Part shown: positions 27,573 to 32,814 of the stretch, in pieces
How the letters are laid out: every line of letters begins with the position of its first letter
Position numbering within the stretch: position 1 is the stretch's first letter
Sequence record: PZ509022.1
From: a phage
DNA length: 64,000 bases
Strand: one strand, 5' to 3'
Made by a program: the position numbers and the translations under genes
The notes under the pieces: generated by a model
Told to the model about the DNA's origin: nothing
Database searches by the model: none
The model's input: the letters and a program-made list of their open reading frames with translations, nothing else

Positions 27573-27629
27573 TTTATTCTCCTTTGATTTGATAGGACTA
27601 CTATAACATAATCCTATCAGTTTGTATAC

Positions 27630-27830
27630 TTATTTTGACATTTCTTCGATGTCACGACGATACCCGTCACGAACTTCACGAAGAGCTTCAAGGCCACACA
27701 TAGGCTCGATACCTGTAATGTGAACTTGATTAATCTGATACTCTACATCTTCTAACTGAGCGAAAACATAACGACGTTCAGCTGCACAACCAGATTTAGC
27801 TTTACCGAAACGCTTATTCAAAGTAGTCAT
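27630..27830 (-). CDS. hypothetical protein (66 aa)
   Basis: ORF track, early promoter upstream. Confidence 0.4.
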   Translation of the reverse strand: MTTLNKRFGKAKSGCAAERRYVFAQLEDVEYQINQVHITGIEPMCGLEALREVRDGYRRDIEEMSK

Positions 27831-27867
27831 TTTGTATCTCCAATTTACTCATTTGTTTTGATAGGTC

Positions 27868-27898
27868 TATAGTATCAACAACTACAGACCATGTAAAC
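27868..27898 (-). promoter_or_regulatory. T4-type early promoter
   Basis: plus tatagtatc ... tgtaaac. Confidence 0.5.
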
Positions 27899-27901
27899 AA
27901 T

Positions 27902-28165
27902 TTATTTTAATTTTCGCCAAATTTTTACTGCTTCTCGCCTCGATACTTCTACGGCGCCAAGTTCTATAGCTTTTTGACGACGACTTGCACGTAAGTCATA
28001 ATGTTTAATGCGTTTATCTTGAAACCAAGAACGTTTCATTCCTATTGCTTCTGCCATTTCGTGAAGCTCTTCAATATCTCCATCAGTGAACATATGACAA
28101 TTTTTAGTTGGATGACCGCGAAGTTTCCATCCATGATTCATTAAAACATCTACGTAAACTGTCAT
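27902..28165 (-). CDS. hypothetical protein (87 aa)
   Basis: ORF track. Confidence 0.45.
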   Translation of the reverse strand: MTVYVDVLMNHGWKLRGHPTKNCHMFTDGDIEELHEMAEAIGMKRSWFQDKRIKHYDLRASRRQKAIELGAVEVSRREAVKIWRKLK

Positions 28166-28345
28166 TGATTCTTCTCCAAATAAGTTTCGATAATTTTCTG
28201 GGCGAGATAAACCGCGTTATCTTCAGTTGCGTCTTCTAAGAAACTTTCAAAACACTCTGAAATTTCTTCTGTATCAATCAACTTTTTTACTTCAATTGGT
28301 GTAATTTTCATTTTGTTTTCCGTTTAAGTGTTTGTTTTGATAGTT

Positions 28346-28377
28346 GTATAGTACCATAAAGCTTTATGCTTGTAAAC
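28346..28377 (-). promoter_or_regulatory. T4-type early promoter
   Basis: plus tatagtacc ... tgtaaacaactttgtgaaaa. Confidence 0.5.
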
Positions 28378-28407
28378 AACTTTGTGAAAAATTTTTGAAA
28401 TAAAAAA

Positions 28408-28428
28408 GGAGCCCGAAGGCTCCCTATC
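28408..28428 (-). terminator. UUCG-loop hairpin ggagcc-cgaa-ggctcc plus U-run
   Basis: rc gives hairpin followed by TTTTTTATTT. Confidence 0.65.
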
Positions 28429-29440
28429 ATTTATAATAACTTCGATGGTTTTCGAGATACACCTTCTCAAGGAAGTCATCCCAGAAACTCATGTCTACTT
28501 TTTGCTGCATACCGTTCTTAGAAGCTTCAGTAGATGCTGCTTCTACTTGATCGACCACATCTTCCAAAAACTCTTGAACCGTTTTAAATGGATGTTTACC
28601 CAACTTCACGTCGAGAATAAATGGAGCGTCTTGAAGTGGATAAACCAAGTCACCAGTTTTGTAAATTTCCAATAGTTGAAGTCCACCACGGCATGCATGG
28701 CTCAGAGCTTTCCAGTCAATGCCTTCATTGGCTTCGGCCTTACGAGCGCGTTCACCGTATTCAGCATCTAATTTGTTCAGTGACTGCTTAAGCTCAATAA
28801 GAGAAAGCGTTGTCTGATATTTACGACCCAACACAGTGTAGAACGTTTGTGGGCCTGTTTTCTCATGATTATGGAACACCCATTCACAGAATTCGTTTTC
28901 TGGAAGACGATGCTTAATATCTTCAACTTTAGTACGACGCTGCTTAATAGAACCATCTTCTTGGTAATCAATCCATTGCTCAGGGATTTGATTAACTACT
29001 TTCAATACATCACGTAATGCAGCCAAACGAGAACCCTTGACGCCATATTTAGAAGCTTGCTTACGGACATATCCTAAATAGGATTTCATGTTAGTCGTAT
29101 AAAAACGAGAACGGTTGTCTTGAATAAACTTCCACACATCAGGCAAATCAGATTTAACCACTAGTTCAGGTGGAGTGTGAAGCATATCCAATGCTACAGT
29201 TTCACCATCTGCTGCTAATTTAAAGAAATATTTAAGACTGTATAGTTCATGGTCAATATCATCTTTAGTGTTTTTAGATGATGTGTTGTTAGTGTTTTTA
29301 CTCATGTGCTCTTTAACATTTCCGATAAGAATATCACGAGCAGGAGGAACAAAGATTTCTTTAAAATCTACATCAGATTCTGGGGTAGAAGTTCCATAAA
29401 GATGACTACCAAAATAGCTTTTCATTACTGTTTTCATCAT
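28427..29440 (-). CDS. predicted nucleotidyltransferase (Pol beta superfamily) (337 aa)
   Basis: N-terminal GSHLYGTSTPESDVDF matches the G[SG]x9-13DxD motif. Confidence 0.6.
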   Translation of the reverse strand: MMKTVMKSYFGSHLYGTSTPESDVDFKEIFVPPARDILIGNVKEHMSKNTNNTSSKNTKDDIDHELYSLKYFFKLAADGETVALDMLHTPPELVVKSDLPDVWKFIQDNRSRFYTTNMKSYLGYVRKQASKYGVKGSRLAALRDVLKVVNQIPEQWIDYQEDGSIKQRRTKVEDIKHRLPENEFCEWVFHNHEKTGPQTFYTVLGRKYQTTLSLIELKQSLNKLDAEYGERARKAEANEGIDWKALSHACRGGLQLLEIYKTGDLVYPLQDAPFILDVKLGKHPFKTVQEFLEDVVDQVEAASTEASKNGMQQKVDMSFWDDFLEKVYLENHRSYYK

Positions 29441-29898
29441 TCAGCCTTATATTCAATAACAGGACATACTTTAGCTTTACGAGCTTTTAAAAATTCGACG
29501 ATAATCGATTTCTTGGGTTGAATAGGAGGTAAACCTTTATACGCCCTATCAATATTTTCTACGTGTAAAGCATAATCCTTTTTCCATTTATAATCTTTAT
29601 ATTTTTCACGCAGTTGTGCAGGAATAACAAATGAACCGATAATAAGTAAAACAAGCAAAATGGCAAGTATAAATGCTGATGGAATAAGAGTCCATAAACT
29701 ACCAAAAATAAGCCATTTCTGCATGATTTCTGCGCAGATAATAGTTAGACCTGCGAGTATAGTACATCCGAAAAAAGAAACGAAAAATGTAGGAATAACA
29801 ATAGACCAAAAATACGCGCACAGTGTCTTAGGTCGTTGCCATTCATCGTTAAACAATTTGAATAATTTATAGTGCCAAGAGTTTTCATTAATAATCAT
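29437..29898 (-). CDS. membrane protein (153 aa, multiple TM)
   Basis: hydrophobic segments; translationally coupled to neighbours. Confidence 0.5.
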   Translation of the reverse strand: MIINENSWHYKLFKLFNDEWQRPKTLCAYFWSIVIPTFFVSFFGCTILAGLTIICAEIMQKWLIFGSLWTLIPSAFILAILLVLLIIGSFVIPAQLREKYKDYKWKKDYALHVENIDRAYKGLPPIQPKKSIIVEFLKARKAKVCPVIEYKAE

Positions 29899-29900
29899 AA

Positions 29901-30422
29901 TTATCCTTTCATTGAAGGTGTAACAGTTGTTAAATACTTAATCATAGCTTCAGCTTCTGATTTTGATAATGAAATTTCTCCATTGTTTTGACGAATAGAA
30001 ATAAAATCCGGATGACGGTCACCACCAGCTTTTAAAACACACATATAAGTATCAACTTCATCTTCAATATTTGAAATGATTGAAGCAGTTCCACATGAAT
30101 GCGGTTTTTGATAAATCAATACAGCTTTTCTTCCACCGTTTGACTGTTCATAAACTTTTAACACATCAAACAAATCACTTCTTTTATCAATAGCTAAAAT
30201 GTTGTTTTCATCTTCAATGTTAAATCCTTCGGATACTTCATAAAGTGTCACCCATAAATCACCTATATCGATAGTAGCATTTTCCTTTCCATGACTTTCA
30301 AGAGCATGACAAATTTTCTTGATTTCGTCATAACTCATTTTAATAATATCATCTCCTTGACTAAGGAAGATGTCATTTTTAAATTCAACACGAATTAAAC
30401 CACTTTCACTTGAAATAAACAT
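29901..30422 (-). CDS. hypothetical protein (173 aa)
   Basis: ORF track. Confidence 0.5.
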   Translation of the reverse strand: MFISSESGLIRVEFKNDIFLSQGDDIIKMSYDEIKKICHALESHGKENATIDIGDLWVTLYEVSEGFNIEDENNILAIDKRSDLFDVLKVYEQSNGGRKAVLIYQKPHSCGTASIISNIEDEVDTYMCVLKAGGDRHPDFISIRQNNGEISLSKSEAEAMIKYLTTVTPSMKG

Positions 30423-30643
30423 ATTTCCTCACTTTGAAATCATAGTTGGAATAACAGAATCAAGATAAGTCTTTAGTGCAATAGCTTCGTCTTTGGTAAA
30501 TGTGACAATATGTGCTCGAAAATCGTCAATTTGACGAATAGTTAAGACGTCTCCATCTTCATAGCATTTTGAAACATTTAAAATAGTTTCATCATTATGA
30601 TTACAGGAGTTAGTAATAATAGCATTGCAATTTTTAAGCCATT

Positions 30644-30982
30644 TTAAACTATGTTTTCTTTCATTAGAATAATAAAATATTTAATCTTAGTTATAAAATT
30701 ATCCCAATTGTTAATTGATAAGCATATTGACTCGCTTTCAATATTAAATCCTAGGCATAAAGAATAGAAATGAATTTTATGCTCATCATTAATGCTTACA
30801 ATTTTATCAGTATAAGGTTTTTCAATTTGGGTTAAATGAATAATTTCGCTAGGCGTAAAATATAGCATATCGTCTTCTTGCGTCAAACGATACATATTAT
30901 TTACTTTTTCTATAGCCAATTCACCAAAAAATGAACTAACTTCTAATACTAATCGTTTCATATTAATCCTTTTTATTGGCAC
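30644..30982 (-). CDS. hypothetical protein (112 aa)
   Basis: ORF track. Confidence 0.4.
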   Translation of the reverse strand: MPIKRINMKRLVLEVSSFFGELAIEKVNNMYRLTQEDDMLYFTPSEIIHLTQIEKPYTDKIVSINDEHKIHFYSLCLGFNIESESICLSINNWDNFITKIKYFIILMKENIV

Positions 30983-31241
30983 GAATTTGTTCTAAAATTT
31001 TAGAATATTCCTTTGTATCAGATTTACGTACAATTGATACACTATAAGGCATACTATCGGTGTCTTTTATAAAGCGTTCCAAATGACACTCTAACAAAAT
31101 TTCTGGATTATAAATCGTGTACATCAAATTACCTGTTGCTCCACGATATTGGCAGATTTCTACTGATTGAACACCATTCCATAATTTTGTTAAAACTAAA
31201 TCACCTACTTCTAATTTAGGAAAGCCCATGTTATTCACCAA
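30963..31241 (-). CDS. hypothetical protein (92 aa)
   Basis: ORF track. Confidence 0.4.
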   Translation of the reverse strand: MVNNMGFPKLEVGDLVLTKLWNGVQSVEICQYRGATGNLMYTIYNPEILLECHLERFIKDTDSMPYSVSIVRKSDTKEYSKILEQIRANKKD

Positions 31242-31416
31242 TTAAAGTTTCAATATAAGAATCAAGATTTACTTTAGCTTCTTCCATAAGAGTTTTGTAT
31301 TTAATCTTGTTAGCATGTCCGGAGAAAGCTGATTCATCAATAATTGTTGATGTATGAACAGCTTTACTATACGTCTCAATTAATTCTCTTAATTTAAAAG
31401 CCTGCTCACTTGTCAT
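31231..31416 (-). CDS. hypothetical protein (61 aa)
   Basis: ORF track. Confidence 0.35.
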   Translation of the reverse strand: MTSEQAFKLRELIETYSKAVHTSTIIDESAFSGHANKIKYKTLMEEAKVNLDSYIETLIGE

Positions 31417-31540
31417 TACATACTCCTTTGAATAATATCAATAATGTTGTTCACCAGATTATAAGTAAACATTGGGTAATTATATTGAATCATCACATAC
31501 ACAACAAACAAAACTTTCATTCTCTTCTCCTTGGCAGTTG

Positions 31541-31578
31541 ACAAGATTACTATACCATAACCTTGTCAACTTGTAAAC
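31541..31578 (-). promoter_or_regulatory. T4-type early promoter
   Basis: plus tactataccat ... tgtaaac. Confidence 0.45.
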
Positions 31579-31743
31579 CATTAAATGGCGTTTTCAATAA
31601 AATTCTGAAGCTTTGTGTGAGCATCAACCATGATTTTCATTTCTTCTTTTGCGAAAGCTGTACCTCTTTCCCGAGCAGAATACTCATAGTCAGAAACTGC
31701 GTTAGCATATTCTTCAATTAGTTTCATTAAAAACATCTGCTTT

Positions 31744-31938
31744 TCAGTTTTCATTATTCCACCTAATCATTTCAAGATATTGAACTAACTTAGCTTTGGA
31801 TTTATCCAAATCCTTTTTAGCTGCTTCTATACCGTCGTATGAATATCCTTCACAATGCTCAACTGCTAATTGATATGAATCTATTTCAATATCACGTGCT
31901 AATTTAATGATTTTTTCAAACTGTTCGCGTGTTAGCAT
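31744..31938 (-). CDS. hypothetical protein (64 aa)
   Basis: ORF track. Confidence 0.4.
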   Translation of the reverse strand: MLTREQFEKIIKLARDIEIDSYQLAVEHCEGYSYDGIEAAKKDLDKSKAKLVQYLEMIRWNNEN

Positions 31939-31940
31939 AC

Positions 31941-32180
31941 TTAAACTCTCGTATTATGATCGATAATTTCATCAAGAAACATATCTAACGCTTCTACAGC
32001 ATTATTAACTTTATCTTCAAGTTCTTCAATACTTTTATTTGCAATTCCTGACGAAAACCAAGCAAAGTCACTAAGTTCCTCATCTGCTTTACGAATTAAA
32101 GCTACCAATTCCTTAATTTTATCCGCTTGTTCGATACTAATCATTATTCTACCACATATGAAAGAGAGAATATTGCACAC
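31941..32180 (-). CDS. hypothetical protein (79 aa)
   Basis: ORF track. Confidence 0.4.
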
Positions 32181-32332
32181 GCCATGTGAGTTGCAACTTC
32201 ATCACACATATTATAACGTTTCTTAAGAAGTTCTACAAGTTCTTCACTAGTAACTTCATCCATGTCGACGAAAAAATCACCATTAATGATGACGTAGATA
32301 TTTCCTTCTTGATTGAGTGCTTCAATTTTCAT
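32144..32332 (-). CDS. hypothetical protein (62 aa)
   Basis: ORF 32144..32377 trimmed to MKIEALNQ so the early promoter lies upstream. Confidence 0.4.
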
Positions 32333-32358
32333 GATGTTCTCCTCTTTATCTGATAGTT

Positions 32359-32390
32359 GTATAGTACCACAACTCAAACGGAAAGTAAAC
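32359..32390 (-). promoter_or_regulatory. T4-type early promoter
   Basis: plus tatagtacc ... agtaaac. Confidence 0.5.
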
Positions 32391-32397
32391 CGGTAAA

Positions 32398-32420
32398 ATG
32401 AAAAAAGTCTCCCGAAGGAG
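32398..32420 (-). terminator. UUCG-loop hairpin gtctcc-cgaa-ggagac plus U-run
   Basis: rc hairpin followed by TTTTTTCATTTT. Confidence 0.65.
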
Positions 32421-32427
32421 ACTAATG

Positions 32428-32814
32428 TTATTCGAGGGAAAGAAGATACTTACTCTGGTAAAACATTCCAGTAATATCATCTATCGTGCTTTGAATGGCT
32501 GGAGGCATTTCTTTATAAATGCTGTTAGATTGGTCTAGTATGCGATCAATCATTTTAATTGTGTCGGTAGGAAGTTTACTGGCATCTGGAATTGAAGGTG
32601 TGTATTTTCTACCAGAATACCCCAAATATTGCTCACCAAATTTATCAATCAAATCTGGCAACTCGGAGAAAATAAAATCGTATGCTTTGTGTCTAGCATA
32701 ATTTTTAGTTTCAAAATGTGCAGAATGAAAATAAGCTTGTGCAGCCATTAATAAACCTAAGTATTCATCTGCCTTTGAAGGTTTTCCACTTTGTGAAAAG
32801 TCGCTGAATTTCAT
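32428..32814 (-). CDS. hypothetical protein upstream of rI (128 aa)
   Basis: ORF track. Confidence 0.5.

Follow-up and report, generated by a model that had tools for sequence, protein, structure and literature searches.

The stretch of phage DNA analysed here (sequence record PZ509022.1, 64,000 nt; hereafter, the window) is a segment of a Tequatrovirus (T4-like) genome, and the three genes at issue lie within its tk–nrdC accessory region, which is non-essential and early. A sequence-only reading of positions 28,346 to 30,422 (the interval) had described a three-gene accessory cassette, and all three open reading frames (ORFs) are present on the minus strand as described: a 337-amino-acid (aa) nucleotidyltransferase (NTase), a 153-aa inner-membrane protein (MEM), and a 173-aa protein of the y05I family (Table 1). 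Each of the three has many homologues and is therefore a real gene and not a chance ORF, and the identities assigned to the genes at the locus are practically certain. The interval has 98% DNA identity to many T4-like phages of Escherichia, Shigella, and Yersinia; it matches 596 phage records, 440 of which span at least 80% of it and have the window-type arrangement.

The 337-aa protein is the orthologue of T4 NrdC.11 (NP_049709; UniProt [quoted passage not shown]), with 98% identity over 336 residues, and the earlier statement that the cassette is not recognizable from T4 is incorrect for this gene. The T4 gene occupies the same place, with the mobD.1 region on its upstream side and nrdC.10 following it, and its terminator and promoter region is shared with the window; the window protein differs in having one additional N-terminal Met codon. 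The N-terminus (MMKTVMKSYFGSHLYGTSTPESDVDF) carries the GS…DVD motif on which the earlier NTase assignment was based, and the motif is retained on careful alignment. In particular, the Pol-beta set G11, S12, D23, D25, and D63 is invariant in 48 diverse homologues (33–54% identity), as are G16, S22, N57, Y124, Y132, R231, K244, H248, A249, R251, and P268. On sequence grounds, the 337-aa protein falls in the Pol-beta superfamily of nucleotidyltransferases, its GS, DxD, and third-Asp elements being intact.

The NTase domain very probably belongs to the RlaP family. Specifically, the protein matches the Pfam RlaP profile (PF10127) with 44.6 bits versus a gathering cut-off of 23 (E = 1.8e-11), the match covering residues 7–135 (profile positions 23–142 of 249), and a precomputed PF10127 assignment is present on all of its close homologues. 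In PHROGs, the protein falls in phrog_388 (E = 6e-137). An exhaustive homologue search returned 3443 cluster representatives (830 at E < 1e-30; nearly all full length, 310–350 aa). An hhalign comparison of the NrdC.11 clade with canonical 255-aa RlaP gives 95% probability over residues 8–100, with GS, DxD, and the third Asp (D63) aligned. Homologues of the NTase are present in 1518 phage records and are 79–88% identical across genera. Hundreds of phage records give NrdC.11 orthologues the label "thioredoxin", apparently from the gene name nrdC, a name-propagation error.

An AlphaFold2 model of the 337-aa protein (predicted local distance difference test score, pLDDT, 94) comprises an NTase domain (~1–115), helices, a beta-rich insert (~155–209), and C-terminal helices (214–336). 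As in canonical RlaP, an NTase domain bearing GS, DxD, and the third Asp stands at the N-terminus, and the C-terminal region is helical; in the crystal structure of Pseudomonas PfRlaP, the C-terminal helical domain forms a cleft with the NTase domain, and the last helix packs back on the NTase domain. Differences from canonical RlaP include a length ~85 residues greater than that of the canonical ~250-aa RlaPs of neighbouring loci, associated with the beta-rich insert, and placement in a separate cluster of the PF10127 sequence similarity network (SSN; cluster 5, versus 1a). Foldseek comparison of the model with the PDB gave weak, generic NTase matches (KNTase, 3c18, and HalB; E >= 4e-3), and sequence searches of the PDB, whether by the single NTase sequence or by a profile of 48 sequences, returned nothing relevant and no PfRlaP chain.

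The two genes upstream of nrdC.11 have a different distribution. The 173-aa protein matches both domains of the Pfam "y05I-like putative transcription factor" family pair (PF24449 and PF24448), with 111.8 bits versus a cut-off of 24.9 for T4_y05I_N (E = 2.7e-32) and 80.2 bits versus a cut-off of 27 for T4_y05I_C (E = 1.5e-22). T4 MobD.1 is a protein of the same family, and the 173-aa protein, which is 25% identical to it and stands in tandem with the MobD.1 orthologue of the window, is its tandem paralogue. This second y05I copy is absent from T4, and other genera have a stand-alone y05I_C-domain protein only (~70–85 aa). An AlphaFold2 model of the 173-aa protein is poor (pLDDT 52; shallow alignment), and a literature search on mobD.1, y05I, and the two Pfam accessions found nothing functional. 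MEM belongs to phrog_944 and has homologues in 928 phage records, all Straboviridae-like, with essentially none outside T4-like phages; it has no significant family match in Pfam, NCBIfam, or PADLOC. The protein consists of a conserved N-terminal motif (SWH[YF][KR]L…P.SLC.YFW), two long hydrophobic stretches (2–4 transmembrane (TM) segments), and a basic C-terminal tail ending in a conserved KA[RK]K.K.CP.IEF; by the positive-inside rule, both of its ends are probably cytoplasmic.

The tight pair at this locus is y05I_C plus MEM, not MEM plus NTase. Of 80 viral loci examined for synteny, 43 have MEM; it invariably precedes the NTase, from which 0–3 unrelated genes separate it, and in 36 of the 43 the ORF immediately before MEM has a y05I_C domain, often as a stand-alone protein of 65–87 aa. 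None of the 80 loci has a y05I_C domain without MEM within 4 kb of the NTase, and T4 MobD.1 is a y05I protein able to persist alone. MEM is also much less conserved than the NTase; in Dhakavirus VR5, the NTase is ~83% identical and MEM only ~33%. The y05I/MEM pair is conserved across Tevenvirinae, is fast-evolving, and is not required for retention of the NTase.

Several variants of these genes were observed. In the window, the gene for the MobD.1 orthologue has lost 1 nt from a T-run near 30674–30680, by comparison with T4 and phage G9062, and is split into an N-part of 105 aa and a C-part of 81 aa read in a different frame; the translations of both parts align to the family. The interruption marks a pseudogene or a slippery site, or else is a sequencing error. 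A metagenomic protein of 179 aa (P0154) has a MobD.1-like N-half and a C-half of the 173-aa type and looks recombinant between the tandem y05I paralogues. In two more distant T4-like contigs (L114:1430-2167 and L121:1607-2335), the membrane protein has an extra soluble N-terminal domain of ~95 aa, and a y05I_C-like small ORF lies downstream, not upstream, of it. In T4-like phages of Klebsiella, Citrobacter, and Enterobacter, three more families occupy the space between MEM and nrdC.11 (L101:3462-4004, L105:3219-3440, L100:3585-4007, and relatives); these are ~180 aa (ending …VGD.F.K…Y.VLAI…G..MFLE), ~75 aa, and ~140 aa, and have no Pfam match.

Comparison with T4 reveals that the upstream pair has been replaced in the reference phage. 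The flanking DNA is colinear with T4, and mobD, encoding an HNH homing endonuclease, lies between mobD.1 and nrdC.11 in T4, at the exact site of the 173-aa and MEM genes. The T4 mobD segment (801 nt) and the window segment carrying the two genes (955 nt) are unrelated in sequence. After the mobD.1 stop codon, T4 keeps the first 16 nt of the 173-aa gene (ATGTTTATTTCAAGTG), indicating that the mobD cassette displaced the two genes in the T4 lineage. The earlier claim of absence from T4, which is wrong for the NTase gene, is thus right for its two companions. In the phage records, mobD is present in 47, all at least 99% identical, and the window-type arrangement in 440; the T4 reference has an atypical arrangement and the window the common one. 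A third natural arrangement is found in an IMG/VR Tequatrovirus contig (L089:3820-5014), in which NrdC.11 (97% identical) directly follows a MobD.3-like 66-aa ORF, and MobD.1, the 173-aa gene, and MEM are all missing. Replacement by mobD in T4, loss in the contig, and the genes inserted between MEM and nrdC.11 in other phages together indicate that the three genes are not an obligate unit. On present evidence, the "three-gene cassette" is not a functional unit but an accessory pair upstream of nrdC.11 in a hyperplastic early region.

Two further segments are absent from T4 and together show that the region is indel-rich: 27583–28336, comprising a 66-aa ORF, an 87-aa DUF4031 ORF, and a 49-aa ORF, each with its own TTTACA-17-TAnnnT early-type promoter; and 30960–31412, comprising a 92-aa and a 61-aa ORF. 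In public records, MobD.x proteins are labelled [quoted passage not shown], a second name-propagation error.

The transcription signals give the three genes a wider setting than the sequence-only reading had proposed. That reading placed the cassette between an early promoter and a UUCG hairpin terminator and considered all three genes translationally coupled. The terminator is there, a GGGAGCC-UUCG-GGCUCC hairpin followed by a U-run, immediately 3′ of the 337-aa stop codon. The promoter is positioned 3′ of this terminator and directed away from the three genes toward the 49-aa and DUF4031 ORFs, and it therefore belongs to the next unit. The likeliest promoter for the three genes lies further upstream, and, together with the preceding terminator, it defines a unit of ~3.1 kb with ~7 ORFs, not 3; the three genes are likely the final three. 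As for coupling, the MEM stop and the NTase start do overlap (ATGA at 29440..29437), but the 173-aa and MEM genes do not (TAA-TT-ATG; the upstream gene contains an AAAGGA Shine-Dalgarno sequence). Of the 28 adjacent gene pairs annotated in the T4 tk–nrdD region, 12 overlap; overlap is common in the region and is not evidence for a special unit, and we rejected translational coupling as an argument for a module. No MotA-box middle promoter was found in 28000–32500. In the whole window, MotA-box-like patterns (TGCTTNA-N11-13-TANNNT) number 22 versus 4.65 expected and are mainly on the minus strand.

Table 1. Features of the nrdC.11 locus (positions in the window)
Feature	Position	Strand	Basis
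337-aa NTase, nrdC.11 orthologue	28427..29440	-	ORF and homology
153-aa inner-membrane protein (MEM)	29437..29898	-	ORF and homology
173-aa y05I-family protein, MobD.1 tandem paralogue	29901..30422	-	ORF and Pfam
MobD.1 orthologue (first y05I copy)	30432..30961	-	Alignment with G9062 and T4
Intrinsic terminator, UUCG tetraloop hairpin and U-run	28406..28425	-	Sequence; annotated as terminator in phage G9062
Early-type promoter TTTACA-17-TACTAT with TG, for next downstream unit	28348..28376	-	Sequence; direction and target from position relative to terminator
Likeliest early promoter of unit with the three genes, TTTACA-17-TATAGT with TG	31549..31577	-	Consensus match only
Preceding terminator	32423..32406	-	Bounds unit upstream

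RNA repair was first discovered in T4, in which Pnkp and Rnl1 act against the PrrC anticodon nuclease, and RloC-type nucleases are thought to defeat Pnkp/Rnl1 repair by also excising the wobble nucleotide. A recent study marks T4 NrdC.11 as an RlaP, in PF10127 SSN cluster 5, with function uncharacterised (bioRxiv 10.64898/2025.12.29.696909, December 2025). The same study reports that two Pseudomonas members of the family, PfRlaP and PaRlaP, add 1–2 nucleoside monophosphates to an RNA 3′-OH, and not to DNA or protein; that they are Mn2+-dependent, preferring Mn2+; that their favoured substrate is the 5′ half of a tRNA mimic carrying a nick; and that they partly restore aminoacylation of a tRNA lacking one anticodon-loop nucleotide (bioRxiv 10.64898/2025.12.29.696909). 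The 3′-OH product suits 5′-phosphate ligases, and RlaP is proposed as an antidote to nucleotide-excising nucleases such as RloC (bioRxiv 10.64898/2025.12.29.696909).

By analogy with the two bacterial RlaPs, NrdC.11 would add one or two untemplated nucleotides to the 3′-OH of broken RNA, the probable substrate being a tRNA 5′ half left by cleavage in the anticodon loop. Addition would feed healing and sealing by phage Pnkp/PseT and RNA ligase 1, and the outcome would be restoration of tRNAs that a RloC-type host anticodon nuclease had cut and from which it had removed a nucleotide. We regard a role for NrdC.11 in RNA-end repair as about an even call. The y05I/MEM pair, for its part, would be a separate module that happens to share an early transcript with nrdC.11, and the NTase is probably functionally independent of it. 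The combined explanation, an RlaP RNA-end repair enzyme with a separate y05I/MEM module upstream, is the one we favour, with a likelihood somewhat better than even.

The neighbourhoods of distant homologues point in the same direction. We collected 80 bacterial and archaeal loci with homologues 32–54% identical to the window protein, 68 of which could be analysed. Pfam searches of 120 same-strand neighbours (at most two genes away) identified RlaP (10), AAA_33 kinase (3), PNKP_ligase (2), RtcA (2), TROVE/Ro60 (2), Metallophos (2), and HD (2), and one neighbour of a distant homologue is a kinase–phosphatase–Rnl1 fusion. A canonical RlaP gene lies immediately downstream of the NrdC.11-type gene in 11 of the 68 loci. 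In distant viral loci, an HD protein is at position +1 in 3 loci, and no other partner recurs. No recurrent membrane family was found beside distant homologues, in either the bacterial/archaeal or the viral loci. These neighbourhoods support an RNA-repair role for the clade as a whole and do not support a membrane partner. RNA repair was one of the options that the sequence-only reading had attached to an NTase-plus-membrane architecture, and it is the option that fits best, given the RlaP match and the distant neighbours; the obligate membrane partner does not stand, given T4, the contig without the pair, the inserted genes, and the lack of a recurrent partner.

The RlaP pairs form an arrangement of their own. 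In one bacterial locus (L040:5001-6746) and ten others (including L025, L037, L060, L061, L064, L065, L076, and L082), a canonical ~255-aa RlaP (Pfam E values down to 6e-81) comes immediately after a long NrdC.11-type RlaP on the same strand, and the paralogous NTases may act together.

Several points weigh against the explanation we favour. The hhalign match to canonical RlaP is confined to the N-terminal domain, with the C-terminal halves unaligned; the C-terminal 200 residues and the beta-rich insert fall outside both the Pfam and the hhalign matches, and substrate choice could differ. A resemblance of C-terminal motifs (YLGY and K..L....R) judged by eye has no tool behind it and was set aside. 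In T4, pseT and rnlA, annotated for tRNA repair, are ~78 kb from nrdC.11, outside the window; the gene is thus unlinked to them in the phage and has no ligase neighbour. In bacteria, RNA-repair neighbours are found in a minority of loci (~20 of 68). The independence of the upstream pair is likewise qualified, since MEM and the NTase are close together on the same strand across several genera, with an ATGA overlap in at least three, which leaves room for a functional link. T4 deleted for nrdC.11 through mobD.3 remains viable on laboratory hosts (PMC9825161), which agrees with an accessory role and is uninformative on function.

A role in tailing RNA for a purpose other than repair is unlikely but would be compatible with part of the same evidence; examples would be tagging of host mRNA or tRNA for decay and, early in infection, maturation or protection of the phage's transcripts or of its tRNA 3′ ends. 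RlaPs label a wide range of cellular RNAs, full-length tRNA and rRNA among them, and have little nucleoside triphosphate specificity (bioRxiv 10.64898/2025.12.29.696909); nrdC.11 sits in an early transcription unit; and its strong conservation across genera is as expected for an enzyme acting on conserved RNA. Against it, RlaPs add just 1–2 nt and prefer a nicked anticodon-loop end, and in bacteria the genes found in association encode ligases, end-healing enzymes, and Ro60. A non-RNA target is a rather improbable alternative. Here, NrdC.11 would serve anti-defence by nucleotidylating something else; it might silence a host HEPN-type RNase toxin by AMPylation, in the manner of an MNT antitoxin, or modify a small molecule as KNTase does. 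The sequence-only reading had raised CD-NTase and MNT/HEPN families for comparison, and membership in neither was found: the NTase matched no PADLOC family at E <= 1, with no CD-NTase chain among the fold matches, and it scores 13.3 bits against the MntA model of MNT–HEPN type VII toxin–antitoxin systems versus a cut-off of 60. MNT proteins are ~100–150 aa, versus 337 aa for the window protein, and HEPN is absent from the neighbouring genes, which encode a TM protein and a y05I protein. A class II CCA-adding enzyme or poly(A) polymerase was also considered and rejected, with no such Pfam match at E <= 1 and only weak fold matches of this type, to Cid1 (E > 0.2).

The three genes could also be one module, in which a nucleotide or oligonucleotide made by the NTase acts on MEM, as in a signalling or anti-defence pair of the Hailong HalB/HalA type, with the y05I protein as regulator; this, too, we consider doubtful, with little chance of being correct. 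HalB is a 217-aa protein that makes Tyr-primed oligo-dA and has the membrane channel HalA as its partner; membership in the Hailong family would call for a HalB-type sequence or fold, a HalA-like tetrameric channel beside it, and obligate pairing. The window NTase is 15% identical to HalB (PDB 9dbh) and has no sequence-profile match to it, and we rejected membership in that family; MEM resembles no PADLOC model; and the NTase–MEM link is dispensable in phages. A bolder form, in which y05I_C, MEM, and NrdC.11 make up a phage NTase-plus-membrane system that mimics or antagonises Hailong-type host systems, an NrdC.11 oligonucleotide keeping a host or phage channel closed, is very improbable. The same low standing applies to its weaker version, in which y05I_C–MEM is a new two-gene early membrane module serving, for instance, in superinfection exclusion or against host defences, its fast evolution being the mark of an arms race.

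For RNA-end repair by NrdC.11, the gene, its family, and the hypothesis of an RNA-repair role are already in the literature, and our scan adds nothing new on the NTase. If the hypothesis is true, a phage RlaP restoring a nucleotide ahead of ligation would supply the missing counter-counter-measure to RloC; the RlaP-type 3′-OH product is directly compatible with T4 Rnl1, itself a 5′-phosphate ligase, and NrdC.11 is found, very conserved, in ~1500 sequenced phages. Modestly new are the observations that the T4 reference is atypical, mobD having replaced two genes; that pairing of a y05I_C-domain protein with a small membrane protein is conserved across Tevenvirinae; and that the bacterial NrdC.11 clade is often found beside a second, canonical RlaP.

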